In this document: one piece after another, positions 7,459 to 61,089 of the stretch
Layout: the number at the start of each line of letters is the position of its first letter
How positions within the stretch are numbered: the stretch's first letter is position 1
Assembly: GCA_965153455.1 (NCBI GenBank)
Contig: OZ234493.1
Location: 34,648,213-34,712,212 of the forward strand
Source: Sphagnum compactum
Taxonomy: Eukaryota
Direction: 5' to 3'
Length of the DNA stretch: 64,000 bases
The notes under the pieces: generated by a model
Told to the model about the DNA's origin: nothing
Databases searched by the model: none
The model's input: the letters and a program-made list of their open reading frames with translations, nothing else
Position numbers and translations under genes: made by a program

Positions 7459-10400
7459 AAACAACTAGAAAAACATTTCATTGACAAGGGATTTGCTAAC
7501 AAAAAATTTCTAACCAAATTTGTTTTAATGTCATAGATGAACCCATTGGACACAATGGAACAACATGTGAACATGCCCAAAGTTAGGGCAAAAAAACGCG
7601 ATGAATCAAAGCTTGACTTCTTGATGAAGTGAAGGTCATGGTACTCCTCATCAGTTTACCAAAAAGTTATCAACATCTAATCATTGCCTTGGAGTCTTTG
7701 AAGTTAGAAGATCGCACATGAAATGATGCACAAGATTGTTGAATAAAAAATCACTCTATCAATATGTCTTCAAGTTCACTATGTGCTTCATTATATTTTG
7801 AGTGAAGTTGAAAAACATTTACCATGGTGAAAGTGGTCAACCCTTTAGTAAATAAAAACTAGTTGGACAGATAGGTGAATTCATTAATAGTTAATCAAAT
7901 TCGTTAATAATTAAATCAATAATAATTAAATACGAACCTAAACTAAGCACGTAGGAACCTTCATTAAGTTCCTAACTTAAGTTAGAAACTTAATTCACCA
8001 ACTTATGGTGCAAGTGTGAAGGTTTGAACCTTTCATGTCCTTTCATCTTCACATTTCAAAAACAAGTTTTTAACCATTAACCCACTAGTTAAATGAATTT
8101 TCTTTTTGTCATCACATATTATTATGCATTTATTTTTTTAACTTCGATAATTCTTGACAATTTTATTGTAAATTATTTTAAATTATTTTATCATAGGCTA
8201 TATTCATTATTTTAGGCCATTTTATCATAGGCTATTGTTGTTATTATATGGTAAGATATTCTTGGTTATTTAAAACTATCTTATTATAGGTTATTCTTAA
8301 TTATTCTAAATTATTATACAACAAGTTATTTTTGGTTAATTTAAGTTATTTCACTGCAAACTATTTTAGGTTATTTTAGATTATTCTACTTTAGGTTATT
8401 CTGCCTTAAGTTATTATATGCAATTTTTCAATATCTTATTTTACCTTTATTTATTATATTATATTTCAAGTCATTTGAAGTTATTATACCTTGAAATAAA
8501 ATAACCTATAATAACATAGAGTAAAAATGACTTTGAATAACCTAAAGTATAGCATAAGGCTCATTAATTGGTTTAGCTTAAAATAACATAAAGGTATAGC
8601 ATAGAGTAACCTAGGGTATTTCAAACAACATAAAATAAACTTATTTACCATAATAAATTATAATAGTGAATTATGTCAATTAATTGAAACATGATGTTTA
8701 ATAGTGAACCTATAATGAAATAAGTTTAACCAAGGTGAAATCACTAACCAATGTAGTGAACATATTCAATTTTAAAGTCCCATAGTCATTTAGGCCAATG
8801 AACTACACACCATTTTCATATTAATGAATTGATGTGGAAAGAAAAAAGCAGGACTGATGAAGTAGTTTTGTTCATGCAAAAGCAATCTGATTTCAAGAAA
8901 GGTATGAAAGATAGGAGCAAAAATGTTTACAACTATTACAAGCCATTGATATAGAAATTGTAAGAAAAGAAAAATTGACATGGGGTTGACATATTGCAAA
9001 AGAAAAAGGCAAAAGAAGGAAATATTGCAAAAAACAAAAATGCATTTGTTTTTGCATTATTGGTTTCTTATGAAACAAATGCATGGTACATTGATTTTAG
9101 AACATCAATGCATATATTTGTTCATAAAAAAATGGTTTCATGATTATGAGAATATCATCTTTATAAAGGTTTACATGGGAAATAACTCAATTTAAGAGGC
9201 TATAGGAAAAGGTAATGTGGACATTACCATGGAAATAACAAAAAATGTTATCAAGAACTTTCATTAGTGGAGGTAGGCCTAAGAACTCAAAATGCAATCT
9301 GAAATTTCAGAGTGCCATGTGGTCATAAGCACCTTCACAATTTTTTGAAGATTAATACACTTTCATATCAAACCAAATGAGGACAAAACTTGAGGCCAAA
9401 AGAATGAAATGCATGTTTATGATGAATATAGTGTTAATTCAAAAGCCTACCAACTAATTGATTTTGCAATTGGAAAACTCAAGGTGAGTAGGGATGTGGT
9501 CAAGATTAATGAAGCAAAAATTTCAAGTTCAAAGTTGGATGCTATTTTAGCTCCAATCTCTAGATAGGTGTTGGGTAAAAACACCTAAGCCATGGTTGAT
9601 AACGAATTAAATCAAGATTAAAGACTTGACAAAGTTGCAAATCTCCAACATGGTGAAGCTAGTTTGAGAAATGTAGATAATGAAACTAGTGGAATTTTGG
9701 ATGTAGTTAACGTAACAATAGAAAATAATGTTGATGAAAAAGAAGGAGATGTTGTACAGAAGGGGAAGCTACTACTAAAGAGCCCCACTTGACCTTAAAG
9801 AAATTGAGCCATAATCAATGACTATCTAGGTTGCACGGACATGTGAAAATTTGCTAAGAATGAGAACATTCTACCAAACTCTGAAGAACACATGTACACA
9901 TTGCCAATAAGTATAATTGTAACATTATTGAAATCGGTGAACCACAAAAATTATTAGAGGCACTAGAAGAGGAGGATGCAAAGTTGTGGAAACAAACTAG
10001 CAATGAAAAGTACTAGTCTTTTATCAAGAATGGAACATGGGAGTTGATTAAACTTCTGAATGGTAGGAGACCTATGAATTGAAAATGTTTGGGTGAAACA
10101 CAATGTAGAAGGGGGAAATAATTGTTACAAGGCCCAATTAGTGGCAAGAGGGTTCTCACAAATTCATGGCATTGATTTTGACAAGATGCATATGAATGTA
10201 ACCAAGTTCATGTCAATTAGAACAATGCTTATGCTTGGAACAATACTGGATTTGGAAATTCACCAAGTGGATGTAAAGTGTGCATTTTTTAATGGAGAAT
10301 TATCCAAAGGAATCTATATGATGAAGCCAAAAAGGTTCAAAGTTCCAAAAACCAAACAGATCCTAGTGTGCAAGTTGAAGAAATCCATCTATGGATTGAA

Positions 10401-11522
10401 GCAATCTCAAAGAGTTTAAAACACAACAATCAATAAATTTTTCAAAAGGAATGAATTCGTTAGGTACTAGTCTGGTTATAGTGTTTATGTAGTGGCAATA
10501 GGCATTGCAAATGCCATGTTTCTAGTTTTGTACATTGATGATTTATTAATCTTCAATAAGAATGTGAGGGCATTAGAAAATGTGAAAAGGAAACTTTCTA
10601 GAAAGTTTGACATGAAAGATTTGGGGGAAATATTGTATTGTCTTGGGATGCAAATTAGATGAAACAGGGAGGAGAAGAACATCAGACTTGGTCAAAGAGG
10701 AACAATGAATACATCGTTATAAGTTTTGGAATGGAGAACTTTAGGCTTGAAAACATGCCCTAGATAACAACACAAAGCTCAACAAGGATGAGATGCCGAT
10801 GGATTAGTAAAAACTTGAAGAGAGGAAACATGTGCCATATAAACAAACTATGGGTTATTTCATGTATGCGATGGTAGAAACAAGACTAAACATCATTAAA
10901 TCTTTGGGGGATCTTAAATCAATTTATGCAAAAACCCATATTAGAACATGGGAAAGTGGTCACACATCTTGAGATACTTGCAAGGAATTAAAAAATATTG
11001 GCTTCATTATTTTGGAGTACAAAATGAATCTAATAGTGTAGTAATCATTAGTGGGTCTTATGATTTTTACTAGGGTGGTGATTGAGATTTTCAATGATCA
11101 ACAATTAGCTTCACATTCCTCTTAAACCAATGCAACTATAAGTTGGTCAAAAAAAAATAAAATCTTTTACTACATTATCAACAACAAATGTAAAAAACAT
11201 GGTTGCTTCAAGTAATGTAAGTGAAGCCATATGGTTTTTAAGAGAGCTTGGATTTTCTTAATTAGTTGTAATAGTGATAATAATTGATAATCAGGGAAGT
11301 ATTGTTTTCATAAAAAATCCTATCCACCACAATAGGACTAAACATATTGACATATGACATCATTACATAAGAAAGGTGGTAGTTGTAGGCGAAATAGAAT
11401 TTAAGTATTGTAACATTGTTGATATGTCTACATATATATTCACAAAACCATTGTTAGTAGACAAACACACATGTTGCATGCAAATGTTAGGATTGAAGAA
11501 ATTTGGTCAAGGGGGAATGTTG
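7459..11522 (+). mobile_element. Decayed Ty1/Copia LTR retrotransposon (gag-pol relic) interrupted by an AT-rich insertion at ~7750-8870
   Basis: gag-like EVKVMVLLISLPKSYQHLIIALE (~7626-7695). Integrase C-term-like RTKLEAK...YSVNSKAYQL...VSRDV (~9380-9500). RT motifs YKAQLVARGFSQIHGIDF, HQVDVKCAFFNG, LKKSIYGLKQS and LYIDDLLI (YIDD at 10531). RNase H DNQG...NPIHHNRTKHIDI (~11290-11355). Polypurine tract aagggggaa at 11509-11517 followed by TGTTG. Many stops and frameshifts. Confidence 0.9.
8160..8660. repeat. Foldback-like AT-rich repeat: ttattttaggttatt-type units, then their reverse complement
   Basis: Degenerate (t/a)aggttatt units up to ~8490, switching to aataacct/ataaccta units after ~8495. 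Confidence 0.5.
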
Positions 11523-17798: not shown

Positions 17799-20399
17799 AT
17801 GAAGACGACGACAAGGACGCGGGCCTTATGGCGGAGGAAGGTGGTGCGGCTGCAGGAGGAGGAGCAGAAGCGCCGCACAAGGCCCACGGATCAACTGGCC
17901 AGGAGGCTCCGCGTCTTGGACCTCATCTCTATCGGTTACATCTTTTTGAATCCTGAGCTCTGCCTGCTTGATTGACATCACAAATCTTTGAATTTGGAGA
18001 TCCTAGGAGCATTTCGTTATGCAATCAAGTGTTTTTGGAATCATGGGTCCAGGAATATGGAGTGCAATAACATAGAGAGAGATGTGCAACAATTGCAGGG
18101 GTAGGATCCACACTAGGAGCAGGGGTGTACGTTTTGGTGGGAACTGTGGCTAGGGAGCGAGCAGGGCCTGCACTCACACTGTCATTCCTCATTGCTGGAA
18201 TTGCTGCAGCTCTTGCAGCTCTGTGCTATGCAGAACTTTCCAGCCGCCTCCCTTCTGCTGGTAGTGCTTACCATTATGCCTACACATGTGTGAGCGAAGG
18301 GTACTATGTTTGATCCCTTCTTCTTCTTCTTCTTCTTCTTCTTCTTCTTCTTCTTCTGCTGATTGTTTTTCTGTTGAATCTTCTGGTGCAAAACACCAAC
18401 TAATTGCAAGCCTAGAAAAACTTGCTGGAATTGGAGACATGTCTCACCACTTCATCAAATCAATGGCGTAAGCAACTAGAAACGGCATAAGTGACGAATT
18501 CAATTTAACTAGAAAATGTCATAATTGACTAACCTAATAAAAAAGGACAAGTCATAGATTCCATGTTCTGATGAAGTACACAATTCCTTTTTGTAGTTTT
18601 TACAATTTAGGTTTAGTGGTGTGTGAAGCAACCAGAAGGTGGGTGGCTAAAGAAAATTCTGCAGAGTACTGATGGGTGTGTGTGACATGTGCAGCATAGC
18701 TTGGATAATTGGCTGGGCTCTCATCTTGGAGTACACAGTGGGTGGCTCCACTGTTGCTCGTGGCATCTCACCAAACTTGGCGATCTTTTTCGGGGGAGAA
18801 GAGCACTTGCCAGGATGGATAGCACGACAAACTTTTCCCGGGAGTGATGTTGTGGTTGATCCATGTGCTGGGCTATTGGTGCTGTTGGTCACAGCACTCC
18901 TGTGCATGGGCATTCAGGAGAGTGCAAGGGTGCAATCTATCATGGTTGTTCTCAATGTTTTAGTGCTTGTCTTTGTGGTTGGAGCAGGTTCATGGGCTGG
19001 CTTTTCTAGTGGGTGGAAAGGCTACCACCAGTCTCAAGGATACCTGCCCTATGGTGTGAATGGAATGCTTGGTGGTGCAGCAACTCTTTTCTTTGCATAC
19101 ATTGGTTTTGACACTGTTGCCAGTACAGCAGAGGAGGTGAAGAATCCGCAGCGAGACCTTCCTCTGGGCATTGGATTTTCTCTATGCATCTGTGGCAGCT
19201 TGTATATGTTGCTCTCTGCTGTGATTGTTGGGCTCGTCCCCTTCAATTTGATAGACCCAGACACACCTATGTCGTCTGCCTTTGATGAACATGGCATGCC
19301 CTGGGCCAAATACATTGTCGCAGCAGGTGCAATTGCAGCATTGTCAACAGCCCTTATGGGCTCAATTCTGCCTCAGCCCAGAATATTGATGGCAATGGCA
19401 CGTGATGGCTTGCTCCCACACTTCTTCTCCACTGTCCACCCCATCACAGCTGTGCCTGTCAACAGTACTGTGACCACAGGCGTGGTTGCAGCAGCCATGG
19501 CATTCTTCATGAATGTCGATCAGCTTTCAGGCATGGTGAGTGTTGGGACACTGATGGCGTTCACAATTGTTGCAGTCTCACTTCTCATTCTGAGATATTT
19601 ACCTCCAGATGCTTCCAAGCCAGTCATCCAAGTTTGCCCCCCTGACAAGGGTGCTCCCTCTGTGCACATTGCTCCCTCTGTGCACATTTCTCCATCAACT
19701 CCAGTTTATGCCTGTGAAGTCTCAACCCTGTTCTCACCTCTGTTGTCAATCTTTTCAGACGCATCCTTGCAAACTCTGCCTGGCTGTGGATCAATTGAAG
19801 ACTTGAATGGTGTATCATCCGTGAGCAGCAGTGGGTCTCTTCTACTACAGGATGGGACAGGTGATCAGGAGGCAAATGCAGCCCCAAATGCATCTCCTGT
19901 CAGTTCCAGATTAGTCCTTCATGAATCTTTGCTTTCTGTAGATGACACTACTACTATTTTGCCTGAATCGAATGAGAAGTTAAGGCAATGGGTGGCAGTG
20001 TTTGCCATAACTGGAGTTTTCATTGGTGTTGTTCTCATCAGCCTGGCTGCTGCCGTGGAAGAGCTTCCCATGCCCATTCGATGGATTTTTGGATTGTTGG
20101 GCACTCCATCATTTTTGGCTGCATCAACAGTTTTGTTTTTGATTGAGCAAGATGAAGGCCATCACAAGTTTGGGCAAGCAGGAGGCTTCCATTGTCCATG
20201 GGTACCAGCATTGCCACTGGGCAGCATTCTTGTGAATGTTTACTTGCTCATGAGTCTTGGTATCCCAACATTGTTCCGTGTTTCAGCCTGGTTACTTTTG
20301 GGGGTAGTGGTGTATCTGGTCTATGGAATGAGCCACAGTCAGCTTTCAAGTGAATTGCTCAAGGAGGAACAAACCCACCAGTTCCAAACTGCTACCTGA
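17799..20399 (+). CDS. CAT: Cationic amino acid transporter (APC superfamily, CAT2/3/4-like), 3 exons, 680 aa
   Basis: Exons 17799-17934, 18099-18300 and 18695-20399, all GT-AG with compatible phases, total 2043 nt. Signature motifs [86 protein letters not shown], and C-terminal [10 protein letters not shown]. An in-frame TGA lies upstream of the ATG. Confidence 0.95.
18318..18357. repeat. (TTC)n microsatellite in CAT intron 2
   Basis: Direct reading. Other SSRs: (CA)n ~17461-17485, (CT)n ~25501-25546, (GA)n ~25719-25753. Confidence 0.95.
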
Positions 20400-35765: not shown

Positions 35766-35926
35766 TGAATCCTAGCATGCTTGTTAGCTTCTTTAAACTA
35801 CCAATGCTTATCCATAGCGCACTCCTTTGCAATACCCACTTTCCACATTGAAGGTCAAGCAAGCCTTGTCTAAGAACTTCATTGCTAGTAGAGATCCCAT
35901 TGAGGTGTTGACAAGAAGGTTCAAAC

Positions 35927-38900
35927 TAGTCTTGGGCGGTTCTCATTTTTTCATCAGAATCACAAGTTTTGGTTCTTTGAAAGGGTTGAGAGAATCGCCC
36001 CAGTTCTTTTTTAAATTTCAGATTTTTATTTGTTAATAACCACCCCAATTTTCAGAAATTCCAAAAAAAATGAAACTTGGTGGTTTTCAACATAGCCGAT
36101 CCTCACAAGTTTTTGACCCACTAGTTTTCAAAGGTGGTTCTTGCAAATGATTATCACAATTGTTATTCCAAAAAATTAAGTTAAAATAAAAAAATAATCA
36201 TTTTAATAATTAAAAGCCACAAAAGGAGTATAGTTTTCAATCTCTTTCACATTGAAATCTTTCACATTCATCATTCACAATTTTCAATCTCTTCTCTTTG
36301 ACATTCTTTTTCAAATTCCTTCAATTCCTCTTCAAAGTTCTCTTCCTTTCTATAAACTCTACCAAGCTAAATGTGTCCTTACAATTTACTCTAAGATCAT
36401 TCAGCCAATTTTTGCTAACAAAAATAAACTTTTCTAGATTTCTAATTACAAACGACATCTTTTAAGGTTTGTTAAAATTTCAGCAAGCAAAAAAATACAC
36501 TTTATTTGCGGAGGTATTATTTTTACAAAAATTATAAAAAAATTGAAAGTGAAATTTAATTTACGTAAAAAAACTAACTTTGTCTTTAATAGTGTATTTA
36601 ACTTTCTTGGGCAAATTCCAACATCCATACATGCTTTGTTCCACTTTAATCTGCCCTTACCAAACTTGTTCGACCAAGTAATGCATTTTTGAATGTCATA
36701 TTGCACATTTTTAATTGACACAAATTTCATGTCTTTGTAAACTTTCTTTTCGATAGTCCCATATTGGCATGCTTTGGAAAAAGCATGTCCAAAACAACTT
36801 CCATCGAAACTTTCTTCCAACCCCAGAATATTATAGCTCACAACAAACCTTCGTGCTAAAGTCATTACATTCAAATTAGCCCCCTCATCTTTAACAAATG
36901 CAATGATTTTCTTCCTAAGGCCAAAAGAATTCAAAAGATTACTCAAGTTTACATCTCGAGCTTGCCCTATGGTTTTAGTAGCTTTAAATAACCTAATAGT
37001 CACTTGCTTAGGTTGTCAATTTGCATCTAGAAAATTAACAACCAATGCAAAAATTTCATGGGCTCTTTTAGACATCCATAAGCCAAAACTAGTAGTGGCT
37101 AACAAACACTTTACTAATTGAAGTAAGACATACAACTCTTTTGTTTTCTCCACCAAATTGGACAAAATTTCTTGGGAAAATAATTTTCCTATATGGGATG
37201 ACAACTCGAAGACATCATATATATTAATTGCCTTGTCTGTCCGTCTGTCTGTGACCACTGGACGCAGAGAAAAGTGACGGGAAAAAGATAAGAGACAGGA
37301 TCGAGCATCGGTCGACGACCGTAGGATGGAGAGCTTTCGACGAAAAGAAAAATGTACGCAGCAGCAGTAAAAAGCGCATGGGTTTTAAAATCATTGGCAA
37401 ATCCATCATTGGCAAAAATATAAAAATAAAAACAAAACATCGACGTAGCTGACAGAAAGTCTGTCCGTCTGTCTGTGACCACTGGACGCAGAGAAAAGTG
37501 ACGGGAAAAAGATAAGAGACAGGACCGTAGGATGGAGAGCTTTCGACGAAGAGAGAAATGTACGCAGCAGTGAAAAGCGCATGGGTGAACGGGGGGGGGA
37601 TCAACGGGTTAAAAAATTGGAGTGGAAAATGCGAAGGACGGGGGGGGGTCGACGGGGTAAAGAACCGGAGTGGGCAATGGGAAGGACCGGGCGGGGGGGA
37701 GCTCGACGGGTGCATTATGCACCGGGTTCACACTAGTAAATGTAAGGTAAATCATTTGGACCAAGAACTTTTCACAAATTGCATAGGAAGATGATTTTTA
37801 ACAATTAGCAAACCAAGGTCTTGTAGAAATTGTCTTTGCTACACATCATCCTTTTTAAGAGGATCTTTAGTAGAAAAAAACTTAGAGTTTTTTTTAGCAG
37901 ACACATTAGGTTTTTTCTTTGTTGGTTGTCTCTCTAAACCATTCCTCATAAGACTATTTACTTTTTCCTCAAAACATTTTTGTAAGCAATGTATGTTCTA
38001 CATCCACATGTTTTTTCAAGGTAGTTATTCCATTAGATTTAAAATATGATATAAGTATTTTTCTAAGTTTAATTCTTGAAGTAAAAATGACATGCTCACT
38101 ATGACAAATCATGCAACACATCATTTGAGCTACCTTGCCTTCTACTTATGTATTGTCATTAACAACATAAAAGGCCCAACATAATGCATTTATACCATAA
38201 GGTTTCCAAAATAATCTCTAAGCATGCAAAATTGAAGTCTTTGATTCACACTCTTCTAATCATTTTTTGGAATTGTACTCATTTGGGTTTACAACCTCTC
38301 ATTTCCTTGTGATGTTTCAAGAAAAGGTTCTTCTTCTATGGAAACATCTTTTTGGAATATTTCACAAGACTATGTTTCAATTTTCATAACATTTTCATTT
38401 TGGTTGGACTAGGCCATTACTATTTAATTTATACAATAAAAAATAATTATTAAAAAAATTACAATTATGAGACCTAAAAAGTAGATAAGGAAAAGGAATC
38501 AGGGTTTAAGGTTGAAAAATCATTTATAAAAATTTACAAATTAAAAAGCTCACTTCTAAATGTAGTTGAAATGAAAAATGTATAAAAAAAAGTTTCTTCA
38601 AAAAAATGATTTTCTTGCACCATCTAGCCACAAAAGTAAATTTTTTAAGTTTTACGGTTAAGGTTTGATTCTAATGGACAATACCAAAACAACCTAACCT
38701 TAACCCTAAAAAGTAAACAAAGAAAAAAAGACATAAGAAAAAATAAATAATTTACAAAATAGATATTTATTATAGTTTTGTTGATCAAAAGACACAAGAA
38801 ATTTGGAGAATGTAAAAGTTGATTTCAAATTTACTTCATGAAAAAAAGCTTGGAAGCTTAACCTCCACCCTGTATCAACCTTGGAATCTTGAACTTGCAA

Positions 38901-39762
38901 AAAAATAGTAAAGGGGGAAGTACGAGTTTATAGAAACAATGCATCTAGTGTAAGCCAGAGTGCAAACAAGAGCCAAAAGCAAGAAGTGAACGACAAAATC
39001 AAGAAGTGAAAGATAGAAACAAGAAACAAAATATGCATTGCGAGAAACATAAGTGAGAAATGAAGATAGAAGCAAAAAATGAAAGACAGAAATGAGAAGC
39101 AAAACACAAAAGCGAAAAGTGAAAGAAAGAAACAATCAACAAAAGCGAAAGATTGAAGCAAGAAGCGAAAAATTGAAAAGAGAGAGTAGAAGCAAGAATC
39201 AAAAGACAAAAGCGAAAGTAAAAAATGAGAAGCAAAAGACAAAAGTGAAAAAGCAAAAGACAAAAATGGAAAGTGAAAAATAGAAACGAGAAGCAAGAGT
39301 CAAAAGTGAAAGCCAAAAGTGAAAAACGAGAGACAGAAGCAAAAAGTGAGAGACAAAAATGAGAAGCAAGAGCCAAACAAAAGTTAGAAACGAAAAGCGA
39401 AAAATAGAAATGAGAGACATAAGTGAAAAACAAGAGCCAAATAAGAGCCAAAAGTGAAAAGTGAGAGATAAAAATAAGAGCCATAAGCAAGAAACAAGAG
39501 CCATGTAAGAGCCATAAGTGATAACCTATAACTTTAAAGTTGAAAATCGAAAAGGTATTGGGAGATACCTTTCCCAATTTTCAATTTTTAAAATTTTTGA
39601 ACCCAAAAGGTTTTGAGTGGGGGTGGTTTTCATCGGGATGAGAATAATTGATCAGGTTTTTAATTCGGTTTTCACCCGATCTAAAAAACAATGGGTTTCA
39701 ACTTGAAAACCAAATTGAAAACCTTGTTGGTTTTCAGTTCACCCCTAAGAACCGCCCCACTG
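35927..39762 (-). mobile_element. hAT DNA transposon with decayed transposase (element E1 of the array)
   Basis: TIRs tagtcttgggcggttct and agaaccgccccactg. Perfect 8-bp TSD GTTCAAAC at 35919-35926 and 39763-39770. Minus-strand relic: BED finger CWAFYVV...CMICH...NGITTLKKHVDVEH (~38185-37990), then TTSFGLWMSK (DLW-like), VKDEGANL, and CFGH (CxxH). Confidence 0.9.
37215..37736 (+). mobile_element. Non-autonomous Helitron (522 bp) inserted in the hAT transposase
   Basis: A|TC start, hairpin ggtgcattatgcacc (37709-37723), CTAG|T end. Removing it rejoins the transposase-like text FTLHLCLRVVIP. Contains an internal ~224 bp-spaced direct duplication and is CpG-rich (young). Confidence 0.9.
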
Positions 39763-39770
39763 GTTCAAAC

Positions 39771-40279
39771 CACTATTGGGTGGATATCATGTGGTTAATA
39801 TTCTTAGTTGGACCTTTCATGATATCACTTTGAATGATACCTTAATTGAAAACTTGATCATTGGTTTTCATTTGTGTGAAAACAGATGGTGAGAATCAGT
39901 TCAAAGAAAAAAAAATTTAATATTGAGACTTGGTTGAAATAAAACCCCCTTCTTCAAGTCAACTTTTCAAGGTATTGTGTACTTTAGGTAGTGGATTGAA
40001 ACAAACAAATAATAAGTCAAAATTAAATAATAGGTCTAAACCTTCTCATAAACAAATAATAATGGGTTTGTGAGAATCACCAAATGATAGTTGGCTCTTT
40101 CAAGTTTATGAGAATTGACATTGTGAGAATTGGTTCAATTTTTTTTAAAATATTAATATGTCGTCTTGGTGTATAATTTTTTTTAAAAATTAAAAAGTGA
40201 AAAGTGAAACCTTTCGTAAATGATTTTGGGAAAACTAAATTGATGGGTATCAAAAATATTTGATACCCACCCAACCTTG
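39771..40279. mobile_element. hAT-type MITE E2
   Basis: TIRs cactattgggtggatatca and tgatacccacccaaccttg. GTTCAAAC on both sides. Confidence 0.8.
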
Positions 40280-40287
40280 GTTCAAAC

Positions 40288-41894
40288 TAGTATTGTCCGG
40301 TTATCCAATTTCTGGAAAAAACTTCGAATATGAATAAAGAATATTCTTAGTTGTAAAAAAAAGATGGATATGTATATTTAAAATCCCACATATTTTCATA
40401 TATAAACGGTTATGTATTAAAAAAAATTATTGAATGTTAAAACTTCATGGATATGCATAAAGTATATGCATTGCCAATTTGTCATTTCTTACTTATAATG
40501 CCGACTAAGGTTGAAAGTTTTAAGTCTAAAGGGTGAATGCACAATTAAGTGTTTCAATATTGGTAGAAATTACACTTTTTATAAGCCCATACAAGATTTT
40601 TTTAAATGATTCAAATGGACATGGCTTTTACTTTTAAAAATGTTATTAGTCTAATTTTTGAATAATACGTTTTCAATCACCTACAAACCTTCCCAAATCT
40701 ATGTGAAAACTTATATTTAATGTAACTGATGTCAATTTCTAATTTGAAAGCCCTAAAAAGAAAACCCATAAAAATTTTAGGAATAATGCCCCATCTAAAA
40801 CTTTCAAAAAATATGCTTTTGGAACAAAGAAATTGAAAAACAAACAAAAAGTACAACTCATACAAACTTATGAAAATATGCTCAAATTTTAACCATTCAA
40901 AAGTCCTTAACTATCAAACGGTTAAGGTTTTCAAATAAAAGATTCCTCATATGAATTTTTCTTGTATTACATCATATATTGAGTTTCAATAACAAATTTG
41001 GAATGTGAATCAATATTATTTTTTTCATTTTGTGATGGTCCAATCAAACAACTAATCCATGTTTTTCGATTTCAAAAGTCCATTACTATTAACAAATGAA
41101 CTTTTTATCAATAAATAATCACACAATTCTTTTCATACTGAATTTGTTAGTCTAGATCCAAGTCCAAATTAATAAATCTAAGGATATATTAATCATCATA
41201 TGTATTTGAATAAAGGGTACCCATGAAGAAAACACCATTTTGTCACAATAGTGAAACACTCAATTGTGCATCTACCTTGAACGCGTATCTTCCAAACTTT
41301 AAAAAATCACAAACCCTAAATCTTCTTCTTAGATATAGTTATAAAATTTCTGGTTATGTATACCTCCCATACATAGATAATGTATTTGTTTTTTGTCAAA
41401 TTTTTGCAACATGGTGAAAAAAAGGGACTAAGGAATCCAACCAAGGATTTTTTTTTTTAAATACAAAAAATTCACCATATCTTGATGGAAAAAATCTAGA
41501 AGTCCCCAAATTTAGATAATGTGTTTTTGCAGATCATCAGAACTATGCAGAATTGCCAAAAAATACAATGTCCCTCTAAGAGAATCACCATTTACTGCTA
41601 ATTAATGTTGGGAATCCTAGCCAATACACTTACTTAAAAAAATTGAAGAAAAAAAATGTATACATAACTAGACATATGCTTAAATAATCCTTGGATATAG
41701 ATATGCATTCGGTTAATGGAAGTGTCTTCCTTCCATCCGTGGACATCAATGATTCAAAATGAGTGGTTAGTCTATATCTGGAGGATATGTATATATATTT
41801 TTTGAATTGATGTAGTTTTAGGATATACATTTATGCATAATCGAGAATTATGCATATACATAACCAGTCGACCATGTATAACCGGACAACACTA
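40288..41894. mobile_element. hAT-type non-autonomous element E3
   Basis: TIRs tagtattgtccggttat and ataaccggacaacacta. GTTCAAAC on the left, GTTCAAC on the right. Confidence 0.85.
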
Positions 41895-41901
41895 GTTCAA
41901 C

Positions 41902-42708
41902 CAATGTTGGCCAAGTACTTGGATTGTTGGTTAGGATCGACTCTTCCAAATTTGGGAACCCAAAACCTAATTGGAACATGTTTCAAGTTTTGAAATTTGG
42001 TGGGAAGATGGTAACTCAAACTGGGTGGGATTTGACCCCTTGTTCTTGATTTGTGTTTAATTGGAACTAGACTTGGGGTTTGGTAACAAATTTCCAAAAT
42101 AATTGAAACCAAATACTTGATTTTTTAAAAATCTAGTTTTGGTTTCAAATTAGGGTTTAAGTTTTTTGGGGGCTAGAGTGCAAAGTTTTTGAAGGTTCGG
42201 AATAGGGTAAAATTGGGACTCTATAAGGATTACAAGTTAGAAGAGGCCATTCAAGGCGTTGAGTACAATTTTGGAAGCCTTAGACATGGAACCACATGCC
42301 AATTATCAAAATAAAAGAAGTTTTGATCCTTTTGAGACATTTAGTGTGGATTAGGGCTTCAAGTTTAGAATGGGCTATTTTGTATTAGTTTAAGATTTAA
42401 AAGACGCTACAATAATTCTTTTTTCATTGAGATTTTATTTTATTTTTAATTTTTGCATTGTTCATTTTGATATTTTGGATGGCGGAGCCGGAATTGGAGG
42501 TTACTAGAAACTAGATGTTAAAGAATCAAGAACCAAAATAGAAAAAAGAATTGCAATTGGAACCACCCCCTAAACCCCCAAAAAAAATCAAACTCAAATC
42601 CCATACTTGAAAAAATAATATTGAAACCAAACTAAAATTAATCTTTTAAAAAAATTTACAAATTGGAACCGATAGGTCCCCCTAGAATTGGGGAATTGGC
42701 CAACACTG
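41902..42708. mobile_element. hAT-type MITE E4
   Basis: TIRs caatgttggccaa and ttggccaacactg. GTTCAAC on the left, GTTCAAAC on the right. Confidence 0.8.
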
Positions 42709-42716
42709 GTTCAAAC

Positions 42717-43812
42717 CAATGTTGGTCAATTAGTACCTTTTTTCAATAATTGGTTGAGAACATTATCAATTGTATTTTTGAAATTTCCTTATAAAAATAA
42801 TACCTTTGATGATTAATTTACTTGGTTAATAACTATGAGCTATGCATAATAGTTGGTTTTCAAATATAGCAAACCCCCTTTATAATCACACCAATTTTAG
42901 TCACATTTTTGTTTGTGTCACACAATTTTCAGTAACCATCTGTTTTAGTTAGAAACACCATTTTTTAGCAGTATCACACTTGTTAGTAACACAAAATATT
43001 TGTAAAGCTTTCTTTGTAAATATGATTATAATGGGGGAAATCTAGGACAAATATTAGGGTTTTGTAAATTGTTTGGCAATGTTAATGTTGCTTTGTGTTC
43101 AAGTTGTGCAAACTAATAACAATGAATCCAATTAAAGAAACAAAGAATAACTTTTTAGTGTAGGCAAACAAAAGATATGCAAACTTGCCAAGAAAGTAAA
43201 AAATCTTAATTGAAAAAATCTAGTTGACAAAATATACAAGCTAATAGTTAAGAAGTTCATACTCAAGGGAAATTGTCACATTAAATTAGGCCAAAATCAC
43301 AACCTTCTTAAAGTCTAATTTAGAATACCCATGTAAGAAATTTAAACAATTAACACCATTATTTTAGCACAAAAGGATTGTTTTATAAGGTTTTTTTGCT
43401 TATAATCACAATCTTGTATGGGTTTATATGGAAAATGATTGTACACATTTAAATCATAATTCGTTAGTGTCACAAAAAAAAGTGGTCACAAGTGCATGAT
43501 TATAAAGGGGGTTTATTGTAATCACCATGAAAATTACTAGTTATATTGCCTAAGTAGGGTAGGTCATAATTTTTTTAAAAATGTTTTTTTAAGGGGTGTC
43601 TTCTACATATTGTAAATATGTGTAACATTTTAAGATTCATAACTTATTAGGGAAAAAATTCAATCATTCGAATCAGTTATTAAATTTAACAAAATCAATA
43701 ACCAATGGTTAGGTTATCAACTCAATTATCAACAAATAAATAATTGACTATTAAATTATCAATAAACATGATGATAAATGGGTGTTTTTTCAATATTAGC
43801 TCGCCAACACTG
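42717..43812. mobile_element. hAT-type MITE E5
   Basis: TIRs caatgttggtcaattagta and tattagctcgccaacactg. GTTCAAAC on both sides (42709-42716, 43813-43820). Confidence 0.8.
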
Positions 43813-45889
43813 GTTCAAACCATAACAAAAACACAATGAAACTATGCATCACATTGAGTGGCTGCATAGGATAAGAGAAACCTCCTACATGCAAACACAA
43901 TGAACCAGCATGTGAGTGAACTAGCACCCACTAGTACAACATGCACAAATGGTGTTTGGACAAGAAATATTTTTCATTGTATTCCAATCGCATATCTAAC
44001 AGTTACTATGGTTAGATATGTATTATGCATCCATACGCATCTGCCTATTTAGTAGTCACTAAATGCCTTGCTAATTTACTTGCCTCCATTAGTATCCAAT
44101 TACATTCCCTACCTATTCGTTTACATTATTTACCCACTTACAAGGTTAGTGTTGGGTGGTTCTTGACTCATATGAAGAACCTCCAGTTCTAGTTCTAAAA
44201 AATGAAATTAGAGCAGTTTTGATTCTGATTTGCAAAAAATAATAATTTGGAGTCTGGTTCCAAGTTAGGTTCATTTAAACAACAAAATCAGGATTTGGAT
44301 TTTAGGTCAATTTCTAAAACTCAAACCTGCTTCTAGTTTGGTTCTATGTAACCTAGACCAAAACTAGCAATTAATTATCAATAAACCTCTGGTTAGCCCT
44401 TGGTTCTAGTCCTTTTAAAATTAAAAAGAAGTCTTTAATCCAATTTCCATTTTGGTTCTTAATAAATGAAGATCTTGGTTCCAGTCCGATCTTTGTTTTT
44501 ACAAAATGAAAAACCTATGTGACGCAAAGCTAGTGTTAAAACATTTTCTATGGATGTGTATGAAAGAAGGGAATCAACCCTAATACATGATGATACAAGA
44601 CGCCAAAATAACAAACAACTGTTCATCATGAATTTTGAGGGCCCTAAAAGCCCAATGTCTATTGTTTGTTTCTGTGTTTTGGTGTGTTTTGTTTGTTTGC
44701 AGGTTTGTGGGGTTTGAAGTTTGCAATTCAATGGAGATGGGTTTTTGAGTTGGCTTTGGTGATGGAACACGTTTACTACTGCAACTGGGGTGACTTTTGA
44801 ATGAGCCATGCAGTTCACGTTGTGCATGACTGGTTGGTGTTGGGTTAAGGTGATGGAGCTGAGAGGAAGCGGGATGGATATAAATCAAGGAGTTCAAGTC
44901 ATCAAAGGCAGCTAAGTTTTCCTTTCAGAATTGATGTTAGACAACAGAAATGTGTGTTGGAGTGTATTTGGATAGAAAAGGAAGAATGCCTTTCTGTTTT
45001 GTGTTTTCTTCTAGTCTAAAGCTATCACTTTCCACTGCGTTGTAGTCTTCAAGAAATAGAAGGTTAATCTATGTTAGATGTAGGGACTAAGTTAGGGGAG
45101 GTGATGACAATGTCAAGGGATTTCAAAGCGATCCATGTGAAGTGTTTATGGGTTTGGGTGTCGATTGGGAATCCCGAGAAAACCTACTGGTTTGACTGAA
45201 TTTGGGAGAGAGAGAACTTGCTGAATTGTGGGAGTTCTAAAGAGAAAAAGGTTTCAAGTCTGTTATGGGTGCCAAGTGAAGAACTAAGTTTCTGGGATCC
45301 AATCTATCTTTTTGTCCAACTCCTTTGCTGAGTGATTCTGGTGGAAAGGGCATGGGTGCATGACGTCAATGTTTATCTGTGAACATCCATGAGACCAGTG
45401 GGCTCTCTCAGAGGAATCTAAGGAGAGTTCTAATCCCTTGAAGTCTTTAGTTTATGGTCTAAACATGGTTGAGAAGAGGAATAGGGGAAGTTGGTGGTTA
45501 CTGTTAAAATAATGAGCTTGATGCAACCACTGTTGCAAAGTTGATATTGATACTATAATCCAATAACAGAAAAAAGATTATCCCCTTCTTTGGTGACACC
45601 TAAAATTAGATCTGATTCTAATTTTATTTTTATATTAATCGAAATTGAAACGAGCAATTCTAACCTGCCAAACTAGACACTCGCCCAACATTGATAATTA
45701 CATAGGTCTTACAAGATTGGTTATTATGGTGGAACCTCACCTGAGTTACAATTCATCCACTACAAAGCATGATAATGGAGTCTTGTTCTCTGGACCAAAC
45801 TACCTATTAGGAAGAGTTTTGGGGTTCGGCTTCATAATTATCTTTGCTAGACAATGATATTGTACAATTGTCTTAGGTAGAGGATTAAA

Positions 45890-46542
45890 GGGTGACTTTA
45901 GACAAGGGTCCAAGGTCCAGGGACCAATGAATTCAAGCAATCTTATTGGTCAAAGGCTTTAAATTGGTCCCAAGGCCTTTAGTCAACGGTCCAACACCAA
46001 AAAATGACAAATTGAGGCTAAACCTACATGGCACCTGTTTGGAGGGAAAATCAATTGGTTTGTACCAAAAGATTATTAAAAGAAGAGCTCCTGATTTGAA
46101 GAACCGAGAGTCAGGCTAGGCACCAAGGCAGAGTCGAACTCAAGGATTCAATTTGCTTCAAATCAGTCCAAATTGGTTCTTAGGAAATTGGACCCTGGAC
46201 CCTAGACCCTCATCTAAAGTGGGCCCAAATAGGGTCCAATTTCCTAAGAACCAATTTGGATTAATTTGAAGGAAATTGAATCCCTGAGTCAGATTATACC
46301 TTGGTCCCTAGCCTGATTCTTGGTTCTCCAAATGAGGAGCTCTCCTTTTTAGCATTTATTTTTTGGTCTGAACCAATTGATTTTCCTTCCAAAATAGATG
46401 CCATGTAGGTTTAGCCTCAATTTGCCACTTTGTGGTCTTGGACCCTCATCTAATGGCCTTGGGACTAATTTAAAGCTTTCTACCAATAAGATTGCTTGAA
46501 TTCGTTGGTCCTTGGACCTTGGACCCTTGTCTAAAGTCACCT
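45890..46542. mobile_element. Two inverted copies of a PIF/Harbinger (Tourist-like) MITE forming a ~650 bp palindrome
   Basis: Copy 1 spans 45890-46226 (gggtgactttagacaagggtc...gaccctcatctaaagtgggccc) and is flanked by AAA/AAA. Copy 2 at 46231-46542 is its reverse complement, missing one end. Confidence 0.8.
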
Positions 46543-56736: not shown

Positions 56737-57736
56737 TCTATATAGTAAAGGACGTCGTGGTCGTGAAGCTTCGGGATGAAATGAAGCTTTCCATCCAGAC
56801 GTCGGGATGAAATGAAGCTTTCCATTCAGACATTGGGATGAAATGAAGCTTTCCATCCATCCGTCATCCATCCCGTCATCCATCCAAACAGAACAAATAT
56901 ATATTTTAAAAAGGAAAAAAACTAGAAAAAAAATTAAAACGAAAAAACACTTTAACAATTAGAAACTTTTTGTAAACACTTAAACATGAAACAAAAAAGG
57001 GAAATACAGTAAAATAATCTTAAACGAAAATTAAAAATAGATGACAAAAAATAAGAAACAAAACAGAGAGCAAAAGAAAGAGAAAAAAACCATACTTGAA
57101 AAAAAAAAATGAGGTTTGTCTTCTTTTTCCAAACTTCAAACCTGCATCTAATCAAACAAAAATAAAAAAGTTTTTTTTAAAATATTTTTATTATAAAACA
57201 TTTTAGAAAAACTAAAATTTTTTTGGAAAAGAAAATAGAAACTAAATAAATAAATAAACGCATAAAAATAGAAAAAAATGAAGATAGACAAAATAAGAAT
57301 AGAAAAAATTAAAACATGAAACAAACATAAACAAAAAAAAGTAAAAACACAAATTCTATAAAAAAGGAATGGAAACAAATGAAACAAGGAAAGGGAAATA
57401 CAGTAAAATCATTTTAAAAGAAAAAAATTACACAAAAAAAGAAACCAAATAAAGAGTAGAAATAAGAAAAAATAAAACTTATAATAATGAAGAAAAACCC
57501 TACTCGAAAAAGAATGAGGTGTGTCTTCTTTCTCCAAACTTCAAAACTTGCATCCAAATAAACAAAAATACAAAAGTGAAAAAGAAACACTTTATTTTTA
57601 TTATACAAAATAATAATAAAAACAGAAAACACATAAAAATAAAAAAATAAAAAAATAAAAGTTTTTTAAAAAACTAACATGAACCAAACATTGTTGAAAT
57701 AACACACCTGTGCATTAGGCAGGGGGTTCAAACTAG
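56737..57736 (+). mobile_element. Non-autonomous Helitron A (A-rich)
   Basis: Starts TC (tctatatagtaaaggacgtcgtgg). Ends with hairpin cctgtgcattaggcagggg then ttcaaaCTAG|T. Near-identical to 58817-59814. Confidence 0.8.
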
Positions 57737-58816: not shown

Positions 58817-60267
58817 CTTAAATTTGTCCTTTGTGTTTATTTATAGGGGGTAAAAATGAAGCTTTGGGATGAAATGAAGCTTTCCATCCAGACGTCGGGA
58901 TGAAATGAAGCTTTCCATCCATCCGTCCGTCATCCATCTCGTCATCCGTCCTGTCATCCATCCAAACAGAACAAATATATATTTTAAAAAGGGAAAAAAC
59001 TAGAAAAAAAATAAAAACAGAAAAACACTTTAACAATTAGAAACCTTTTGTAAACACTTAAACATGAAACAAAAAAGGGAAATACTGTAAAATAATCTTT
59101 AAAAAAAAAAAAATAGATGACAAAAAATAAGAAACAAAACAGAGTGCAAAAGAAAGAGAAAAAAAACCATACTTGAAAAAAAAAAGAGGTTTGTCTTCTT
59201 TTTCCAAACTTCAAACCTGCATCTAATCAAACAAAAATAAAAAAGTTTTTTTTTAAATATTTTTATTATAAAACATATTAGAAAAACTAGAATTATTTTG
59301 GAAATGAAAATAGAAACTAAATAAATAAATAAACGCGTAAAAATAGAAAAAAAATGAAGATAGACAAAATAAGAATAGAAAAAATTAAAACATGAAACAA
59401 ACATAAACAAAAAAAAGTAAAAACACAAAAACTATTAAAAAGGAATGGAAACAAATGAAACAAGGAAAGAGAAATACAGTAAAATCATTTTAAAAGAAAA
59501 AAATTACAAAAAAGAAGAAACCAAATAAAGAGTAAAAAATAAGAAAAAATAAAACTTATAATAATGAAGAAAAACCCTACTTGAAAAAGAATGAGGTGTG
59601 TCTTCTTTCTCCAAACTTCAAACTTTGCATCCAAATAAACAAAAATACAAAAGTGAAAAAGAAACACTTTATTTTTACAATAAAAAATAATAATAATAAC
59701 AGAAAACACATAAAAATAAAAAATAAAAAAGATAAAAGTTTAAAAAAAAAACTAAAACATGAACCAAACATTGTTGAAATAACACACCTGTGCATTAGGC
59801 ACGGGGTATTCTAGTAACATAAAGTAAAGGACGTCGTGGTCGTGAAGCTTTTTCCATCCATCCATCCGTCTCGTCATCCATCCAGTCCAGCTGAAGGTAT
59901 CTTGTGACTCCCCATCCTGCAGTAGCAATCTCCTTCACAAATGCAACAGAACTCAATATGTACATTTCTATGGTCACATCTTGCATTTGGATTTTTCCAC
60001 ATCTACTTGATTGCTGAGAGGCAAGTGTGTACATGCATCAAATTTGTGTTTGGCAACATGTCAGATTGGGCAAGGAAAAAGCCTGAGTTATGAATGGAGA
60101 AGTTGCTCATATGGGAGAGGTGTAGAGGAAAGGGGAGAGAGGGGATTGATGATGTAATTTTTTTGTGTAATTTAGAGAGGTTTTGGAAATGTAGTTTGTA
60201 GTTGTAATTTTGTTATATGTACCGTCAAATACACACACCTGTGCATTAGGCACGGGGTTCAAACTAG
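58817..60267 (+). mobile_element. Head-to-tail Helitron pair: B (to CTAG at 59811-59814) and C (~59815-60267)
   Basis: B duplicates 56700-57736. C restarts the same 5' motif (agtaaaggacgtcgtggtcgtgaagctt) and ends cacctgtgcattaggcacggggttcaaaCTAG|T, but has a different interior. Confidence 0.8.
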
Positions 60268-61089
60268 TACCTAACAAAGGAGAACCCTTCTCTTCAGTGT
60301 TTTTTTAAGGAATTTTTGTTTCTAGTTCTCTTCAGTGTTTTTTTAAGGAATTTTTATTTCTAGTCAAAGTGGCCATTGGTGGTGTGTTTTGACAGATTTA
60401 TCGTCTTCTCTTCTTTTTTTTTGGGGGGTGATAAGTTAATTTTCATTTTGCATTTCACTGTGATGGGCATTCTAACAAATGTATTTCATATAACGTATTC
60501 ACCAAAAAAATTACATTGAAGAAGAGCCTTTATACTTATTGCAAGGCTTCTTATTGCCAAAACATAGCCTTGGTGGCAATAGAAAGATGTAGAAAAATGA
60601 TGATAATCTCTAAGAAGATTTAGCCAAACATGGCTATAAACCGTATGCAAAAATACAAAACTTTAATCATCCTTCTATATTTTTGGCTACACGTGGAAAA
60701 CCAAATATAGAAATCTGCCAGACTTTTATTAATTTTGTCCCCTTCACTTCTTGTGATTGAAAACCTTCAAAATCGCTAATTTTTAGAATAATTTCTCTTT
60801 TTTAATTTCTCTTTTTAGCAAATTTTTTTCAATATAAAAAACCGTTGCTTCTCTCAGCTTATCAAACATCTTAAGAAATTTCCTTTACATTTACATATAT
60901 AGCTCATATGTAGAACTTTGTTCTTATGAGACATCTTAGTGCAAAACCTTCTTCTTCTGCCAATGCTTTACACCAAGTTGTTTTTGTTGAGATTTTCATT
61001 AACACTTAATTGTTAAAGAATAAGTGTTCAGTGTTCGCCCTTTTTCTTTACAGTTTTAGGTGGTGTGTCGTGGCCAAGGCATGGCCTTC

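Follow-up and report, generated by a model that had tools for sequence, protein, structure and literature searches.

Five unrelated hAT-type elements chained at one duplicated 8-bp target in Sphagnum compactum

How can several transposable elements that share no homology come to stand end to end, each divided from the next by the same eight bases? This question is raised by a stretch of 64,000 nucleotides from Sphagnum compactum (contig OZ234493.1 of assembly GCA_965153455.1, forward-strand positions 34,648,213 to 34,712,212), which we call the window and number from its first base. It holds an array of five segments, E1 to E5, each with its own terminal inverted repeats (TIRs) and each bordered by copies of the 8-mer GTTCAAAC, one of them a base short. 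The original prediction for this DNA had described five different hAT elements stacked at one self-duplicating 8-bp target. Our analysis supports that description, and we think it likely that the locus arose by serial insertion of unrelated hAT-type elements into a target that is regenerated by the 8-bp duplication.

Five segments and one target word

The borders predicted for the five segments, the GTTCAAAC sites and the single 7-base GTTCAAC all hold (Table 1). Every segment has an imperfect TIR pair of its own; the ends of E4 agree at about 12 of the first 13 bases, and those of E1 pair only with a 2-base gap. A YAGTGTTGG-like word opens all ten segment ends. The first base of E3, which is T in the window, is C in two other sequencing runs (X8 and X9, introduced below). 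The five hAT-type elements adjoin one another without nesting, and coding remnants are found in E1 alone, E2 to E5 being non-coding.

Several features assign these segments to the hAT group. Short hAT TIRs start with a YARNG-like word, and seven of the ten ends fit it (CAGTG three times, CAATG twice, TAGTG and CAAGG once each); the other three, TAGTC, CACTA and TAGTA, are off by one or two bases. The elements are bounded by an 8-bp duplication: GTTCAAAC is exact at five of the six borders and a base short, at 7 bases, at the other. Finally, GTTCAAAC bears T at position 2 and A at position 7, as in the hAT target consensus nTnnnnAn (PMC2803484, PMC3276498).

On both strands together GTTCAAAC occurs 10 times in the window, where 4.43 occurrences are expected, and a count of 10 is reached by 1 of 100 shuffles. 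The signal is the position of the 8-mer rather than this count: six consecutive TIR boundaries coincide exactly with the five 8-mer copies and the 7-mer, and both outer borders of the array bear a complete 8-mer adjoining unrelated flanks.

If the array had grown by tandem duplication or unequal crossover of one element, then its segments should resemble one another. A blastn search of E1 to E5 against the window (word size 9, E<=1e-3) found no homology from one segment to another and only a single copy of each. This candidate fails because no segment matches another, as the original prediction had held. Joined-end circular episomes of the kind described for hAT elements (PMC2803484) were rejected as an origin as well, because the abutting elements are mutually unrelated.

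The array stands alone in its surroundings. Strict and relaxed scans found no complete element with TIRs and a target-site duplication elsewhere in the window; the two weak TIR pairs outside the array compare with three in a reversed-sequence control, and the 12 TIR pairs that one scan returned inside it are combinations of the array's own ends. YARTRTTGG-like ends number 16 in the window against 7.5 expected, and the further ones found no partner end.

Table 1. Positions of the array, of its interior features and of open reading frames elsewhere in the window
Feature	Positions	Strand	Details
8-mer copy 1, GTTCAAAC	35919..35926	+	left border of the array; G precedes
E1, putative deleted non-autonomous hAT element	35927..39762		3836 bp; transposase remnant on - strand
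Putative hAT transposase remnant in E1	36572..38211	-	tblastn; three pieces, 38211-37993, 37931-37761, 37174-36572
High-copy GC-rich repeat nested in E1	~37242..37738	+	depth, loose ends, homology gap; borders approximate
8-mer copy 2, GTTCAAAC	39763..39770	+	E1/E2 junction
E2, non-coding TIR element	39771..40279		509 bp; TIR match 15/20
8-mer copy 3, GTTCAAAC	40280..40287	+	E2/E3 junction
E3, TIR element	40288..41894		1607 bp; TIR match 18/20
High-copy TIR element of another family nested in E3	40532..41276		38-nt arms, 82% complementary; depth
7-base GTTCAAC (8-mer minus one A)	41895..41901		E3/E4 junction
E4, non-coding TIR element	41902..42708		807 bp; near-consensus ends CAATGTTGGCCAA / CAGTGTTGGCCAA
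8-mer copy 5, GTTCAAAC	42709..42716	+	E4/E5 junction
E5, TIR element	42717..43812		1096 bp; TIR match 13/20
High-copy TIR element of another family nested in E5	~42871..43513		depth, loose ends at 42871; borders approximate
8-mer copy 6, GTTCAAAC	43813..43820	+	right border of the array; C comes next
Pfam amino-acid permease domains	18651-20396	+	open frame
Pfam trehalase segment	24381-24935	-	open frame
Pfam copia-type reverse-transcriptase fragment	10078-10416	+	open frame

E1 had been said to carry a decayed BED-hAT transposase, and the hAT half of that name is clear. The minus-strand frame at 36446-37015 has 1012 protein matches at E<=1e-3 (phmmer), and the Pfam domain Dimer_Tnp_hAT is present in three long matches to it. 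By tblastn, residues 51-125, 147-202 and 224-423 of one of these three, a homologue of 763 amino acids, map onto 38211-36572. This homologue is a Ceratodon purpureus protein whose UniRef name, 'BED-type domain-containing protein', is the label given by the source; Pfam found zf-BED neither in the E1 reading frame nor in this nearest full-length homologue, and it gave no match at all on the E1 reading frames. A search for homologous proteins with longer lengths returned no match. E1 lacks a counterpart for the C-terminal ~340 amino acids of the 763-residue protein, the dimerisation domain included. Because this C-terminal part is absent and the remnant is split by a nested repeat, E1 appears to be a deleted hAT element with a truncated transposase.

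The repeat that interrupts the transposase remnant is GC-rich and has internal direct repeats, and its summed contig depth reaches 37,401 in run X1, compared with about 35 where the sequence is unique. At its end stands a hairpin and then CTAG followed by T (GGGTTCACACTAG), which we take to be a Helitron-like 3' end. E1, E3 and E5 are each interrupted by a nested high-copy repeat of another family, so the elements are not wholly uninterrupted. E1 also contains, at 38950-39520, about 570 bp of A/G-rich degenerate repeats with a unit of about 20 bases in 18 copies.

The array in other samples and its target in relatives

An array of this form could be a product of assembly. All or part of the stretch is present in 20 public runs, and we aligned the contigs of four of these (X1, X3, X8 and X9) to the window at 90% likeness. 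The Logan contigs of X1 and X3, which come from two studies, span all six junctions with 0 differences. X8 comes from a third study, and its listed pieces cover five of the six, namely the left junction, E1/E2, E2/E3, E3/E4 and E5/flank. Under another organism label, X9 spans, at single-copy depth, the left border of the array and the junctions E2/E3, E3/E4, E4/E5 and E5/flank; its listed pieces diverge by ~3-9% from the window, and its coverage of E1/E2 is borderline. Because contigs of three studies and a second label bridge the junctions, the array is real, and it is old, older than the split of the two organism labels. An artefact or a duplication, whether by mis-assembly, tandem duplication or unequal crossover, would have to produce these bridged junctions in all three studies and under the second label, and would have to do so with zero homology between segments; we give it practically no credence. 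The ends of E1, E2 and E4 lie at 1-3x single-copy depth, and these are low-copy or old families.

As the window has no other complete element, we turned to metagenome contigs and looked there for 8 bases of any kind enclosed between a right end and a left end, which gave at least 120 stretches. Among the matches listed, to which all counts of junctions and loci below refer, 87 lie in contigs of low GC content whose repeats are 65-90% identical to repeats of the window; we take these to be host DNA of relatives rather than of the same species. Left out of the count were 34 junctions in contigs with a GC content above 0.45 (other organisms; 14 with GCCATGGC), 7 low-GC junctions with inverted-repeat flanks and 2 too near a contig end. 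Merging of near-identical contexts then gave 39 distinct junctions, about 10 of which look like other organisms or chance and yet were counted (L014, L029, L037, L040 and L046 among them, with L053, L060, L071, L090 and L098 as further doubtful cases). Fourteen GC-rich contigs (GC above 0.5; for example L007, L012, L035, L047 and L068) carry the same 9-base inverted words around GCCATGGC, and this set is an unrelated palindromic repeat of other, GC-rich organisms that the search pattern caught.

The junction words follow a palindromic pattern. GTNNNNAC fits 17 of the 39 distinct junctions, against a background of 0.31%, and the stricter GTTNNAAC fits 8, against 0.042%; NTNNNNAN, the nTnnnnAn check, fits 26. 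The resulting consensus, GT(T)nn(A)AC, is fully matched by GTTCAAAC, and GTTCAAAC or its complement is itself found at 3 of the 39 (L011; L038, which equals L113; and L074, which equals L086). In a noisy set of single ends from relatives, G is enriched just outside the duplication (19/37). Complete elements with an exact 8-bp duplication number 8 in the relatives' contigs and 0 in a reversed-sequence control; these become 7 on de-duplication and 6 once one that was read on both strands is merged, and their duplications are GTTnnnAC-like. A hAT-like end adjoins one side of 14 of 255 GTTNNAAC sites (~5%), compared with 3282 of 608,190 positions overall (0.54%). Target specificity stricter than nTnnnnAn had been predicted, and this is borne out in so far as the group prefers GT(T)nn(A)AC and uses GTTCAAAC at other chained loci, but the preference is close to the motif already published for hobo, GTNCGNAC (PMC3276498).

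Chaining itself recurs in the relatives. The two sides of the junctions shared no match of at least 60 bases in 36 of 46 loci compared, and scattered repeats only in the other 10. L011 is an independent chain at the 8-mer of the array and reads (GTT)CAAAC, a 403-bp element, GTTCAAAC, a 416-bp element, GTTCAAAC and an unrelated flank. At L074, a 7-base partial copy directly follows the second 8-mer, presumably what an excision footprint would leave. Collectively, the relatives show both the target consensus and recurrent chaining.

The same loci bear on whether the 8-mer might instead belong to the elements, as part of extended termini, as a sign of a superfamily with a shorter duplication, or as the site of a cassette recombination system. 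GTTCAAAC is nearly palindromic (GTT..AAC) and forms, with the TIRs, a long inverted repeat at each junction, and GGTTCAAACTAGT is present at two Helitron-like 3' ends in the window, both of which speak for such a reading. However, related termini in the relatives are flanked by dozens of different 8-mers, and because one and the same terminus family adjoins quite different 8-mers from locus to locus, the 8-mer is target and not terminus, as predicted. The whole 8-mer is, moreover, kept at both outer borders beside unrelated flanks. Since X8 and X9 have C where E3 starts with T, the agreement of E3 with the Helitron word is a derived one, and a cassette system would need a recombinase gene, where none is present and the sole coding remnant is a hAT transposase. 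We therefore regard an 8-mer that belongs to the elements as very improbable.

Two further observations concern these junctions and their termini. L015 and L101 share the junction ATATATAC, and L015 has 18 extra bases after it that consist of a 10-base element start and a near-copy of the 8-mer; they resemble what a chain member since lost, or a local duplication, would leave behind. In the window, 327 bp to the right of the array, lies a solo end (44147-44292, TAGTGTTGGGTGGTTCTTGAC...) that matches at 73-93% the terminus family common at L015, L021, L066, L101, L103 and L117. The 8-mer adjoining it is off consensus, and no partner end was found for it.

Routes to a chain of elements

Serial insertion would proceed as follows. 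A first hAT-type element would enter GGTTCAAACC, and the staggered 8-bp cut would leave GTTCAAAC on both sides of it. Four more non-autonomous elements, unrelated yet from this one broad hAT group, would then land in register in existing copies of the 8-mer, each insertion adding one copy, to give n elements among n+1 8-mers. The target would be used repeatedly because GTTCAAAC is a full match to the group's palindromic preference. Since the element ends (C...G) would keep the 8-mer between its favoured G on the left and C on the right, a regenerated copy would stay a good target; the window site reads G-GTTCAAAC-C. The same 8-mer at six consecutive TIR boundaries is what in-register re-insertion with the hAT 8-bp duplication predicts. 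The five insertions would have come one after another as independent events, with sequence preference alone driving the re-use, and the resulting array is old and apparently fixed, apparently without a function of its own.

Several observations weigh against serial insertion, or against sequence preference as its only cause. No insertion step has been observed directly, as the contigs of the four runs show no empty or shorter allele; comparison with related samples, which had been suggested as a check, thus found the array under a second label and nothing that precedes it. Among 15 joints listed (119 more exist), 0 skip exactly one element; the joints listed have short sides (21-59 bases) and sit at repeats. 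By a rough estimate, re-use at a few percent would give chains of five members well under once per genome, and sequence preference alone may be insufficient; extra heat at this site, or attraction by resident ends, may have added to it. A perfect GGTTCAAACC site elsewhere in the window, at 8022 on the minus strand, is empty.

The relatives, too, give the reading less than full support. Their 120 listed loci contain no copies of E1 to E5; what blastn matched there was limited to the transposase part, the nested repeats and short stretches of the ends. The search for other chains yielded the 39 junctions and the independent chain at L011, but closure by the same 8-mer at the far end was found in only 15 of the 87 low-GC loci (a TIR of at least 12 of 22, with at most 1 mismatch), and a partner search blind to the duplication gave mostly weak partners; double insertion is thus undemonstrated for most of these junctions. 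Some junction pairs recur, either with a changed 8-mer or beside another left neighbour: L034 and L069 have the same abutting pair with the 8-mer reverse-complemented (GTTAGAAC versus GTTCTAAC), and L001 and L056 have different left neighbours beside the same 8-mer and right element. Such recurrent pairs may be orthologues from different hosts, or composites moved as units. Outside the ascertained junctions, 4 of 67 exact ends adjoin another end, and 3 of these 4 are in contigs of a different, palindromic-repeat kind.

The rarity expected of long chains is one ground for supposing that tethering or homing acts on top of the preference. Transposase bound at resident ends or at subterminal repeats would recruit an incoming transpososome, and an 8-mer there would outcompete an equal free site. 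A chain of five far exceeds what the relatives' 39 junctions offer, with at most 3 sites of one 8-mer within the contig sequence covered, and the rough estimate of re-use makes it unlikely to arise by preference alone; the perfect site at 8022 is empty, yet the array site took five. The YAGTGTTGG-like word is common to all ten ends, so one transposase could bind them all, and the Hermes octamer is described as binding one transposon end through several BED domains (PMC10368747). On the other hand, the share of good free sites that are occupied (14/255) is of the same order as the share of abutting ends, so that dimers need no tethering, and a single empty site is without statistical weight. 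Tethering seems to us unlikely to be what made this array.

The recurrent pairs suggest a different shortcut, in which a portion of the chain formed first at some other GTTCAAAC site and moved here as a unit, a composite or macrotransposon, by the outer ends of two neighbours, with fewer than five insertions at this locus. Both L034 with L069, where one abutting pair recurs with a differing 8-mer, and L001 with L056, where the left neighbours of one 8-mer and right element differ, are of the form expected of such composites, and the recurrence of GTTCAAAC as a junction 8-mer (3 of 39) means that a carrier could meet an identical target. Against this, the internal 8-mer and the new target would have to be identical every time, a second copy of any E-pair is absent from the window and from the relatives' listed loci, and the recurrences may be mere orthologues, from different host species in different samples. 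We consider movement as a composite quite improbable, and serial insertion remains the reading that we prefer.

The surrounding window and known arrays

Beyond the array, the window resembles plant nuclear DNA, to judge from a predicted amino-acid permease gene, a trehalase exon and a copia reverse-transcriptase fragment. These three were the only Pfam matches in the 24 frames scanned. ARAGORN, at default settings, found no tRNA across the in-silico empty site, and no Rfam family was found in the window. The proposal that the empty site resembles an RNA polymerase III B-box, and that this could have been a targeting cue, finds no support in these searches and is dropped. The sole ARAGORN call in the window, a tRNA-Leu at 46172-46254, is a long near-perfect palindrome and probably a foldback or a hairpin like that of a miniature inverted-repeat transposable element.

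Helitrons have no TIRs and make no duplication, and they end in a 3' hairpin and CTRR. The units of the array have TIRs and 8-bp duplications, and were for that reason rejected as Helitrons. The window does hold three copies of a repeat end (57700-57735, 59780-59812 and 60230-60268) that consists of a GC-rich hairpin (CCTGTGC...GCACGGG), about 8 bases, and CTAG followed by T, and that we assume to be Helitron-like; the nested repeat in E1 has an end of this kind. The word of the array target, GGTTCAAAC, is found in two of the three, while the third has GGTATTC; the word GGTTCAAACTAGT lies at 57725 and 60256. We treat the resemblance to these ends as an unexplained coincidence.

Integron arrays and those of clustered regularly interspaced short palindromic repeats (CRISPR) grow as one site takes up unit after unit, and the original prediction had drawn an analogy with both. 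Other site-specific arrays include tandem R1 elements in ribosomal DNA and dimers of bacterial insertion sequences (as cited in PMC5932611), and tandem casposons (PMC4779613). In all of them, as in the array, the target repeat is retained between units, and to that extent the analogy of architecture stands. The site-specific systems, however, use a dedicated enzyme and an attachment or leader site, whereas the array draws on the degenerate palindromic preference of an ordinary transposase; the window frames of at least 110 amino acids (24 of 40 frames scanned) include no integrase and no Cas1-Cas2, and neither a dedicated integrase nor a leader is implied.

The closest parallels in mechanism come from Drosophila. 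Tandem P elements are described as double insertions that retain the 8-bp duplication in the junction, at sites nearer to the consensus than those of single insertions, and a hobo array with one shared 8-mer is also reported, the longer hobo array being an expansion of one dimer (PMC5932611). Like the Sphagnum array, these P and hobo tandems stand head to tail with exactly one target-site duplication between units, and their junction motifs match the target consensus; hobo, moreover, is a hAT element with an 8-bp duplication. They differ in that each is two copies of one family, whereas the array comprises five mutually unrelated elements with one insertion each, and in that the array is old and apparently fixed. 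The targets also agree: the hobo motif GTNCGNAC is palindromic over 14 bp (PMC3276498) and the Hermes target is NTNNNNAN (PMC2803484), and both share with the array the 8-bp duplication, T2 and A7, the outer G and C, and a palindromy that extends beyond the duplication. The group described here also favours T3 and A6 (GTTnnAAC), in a small sample of the 39 junctions and 7 complete elements (6 when merged).

Arrays of unrelated elements are known from guayule and rice, where SaTar elements, non-autonomous Mutator-like elements (MULEs), form linear, non-nested multimers (PMC5907723). There, as here, small unrelated TIR elements stand end to end with the same short joint sequence. SaTars, however, are Mutator-like and make 10-bp duplications outside microsatellites, in contrast to the hAT-type elements of the array, and their joints are microsatellites of variable length that are often inconsistent with simple cut-and-paste, for which the authors invoke other mechanisms (PMC5907723). 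The joint of the array is a complex, exact 8-mer that fits ordinary transposition.

The locus thereby adds heterologous hAT elements, chained at a complex 8-mer, to what was known of double insertion (dimers of one family) and of non-nested arrays (MULEs at microsatellites). No report of a hAT target used five times in register, each time by a different element, came up in a literature search, although the supplements of PMC5932611 and PMC5907723 may list more arrays. The array is a clean natural record of such use, and, together with the junctions in relatives, it suggests that duplication plus a palindromic preference can build ordered, non-nested stacks without microsatellites. It offers a defined 10-bp substrate with which the target choice of hAT transposases, and any attraction by resident ends, could be studied. 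Chains of this kind will be mis-called by annotation pipelines built to look for nesting or to fuse neighbouring TIR elements into one.

A broader possibility, which we offer tentatively and regard as rather doubtful, is that the C...G termini of this hAT group rebuild the extended palindrome G-GTTnnAAC-C beside each element that inserts. Chains of unrelated elements would then grow at hot 8-mers in a rich-get-richer manner, perhaps helped by end-bound transposase, and would seed new mobile composites. If this is true, transposon stacks in these genomes would have a general way to develop out of single insertions, one that is encoded in sequence.

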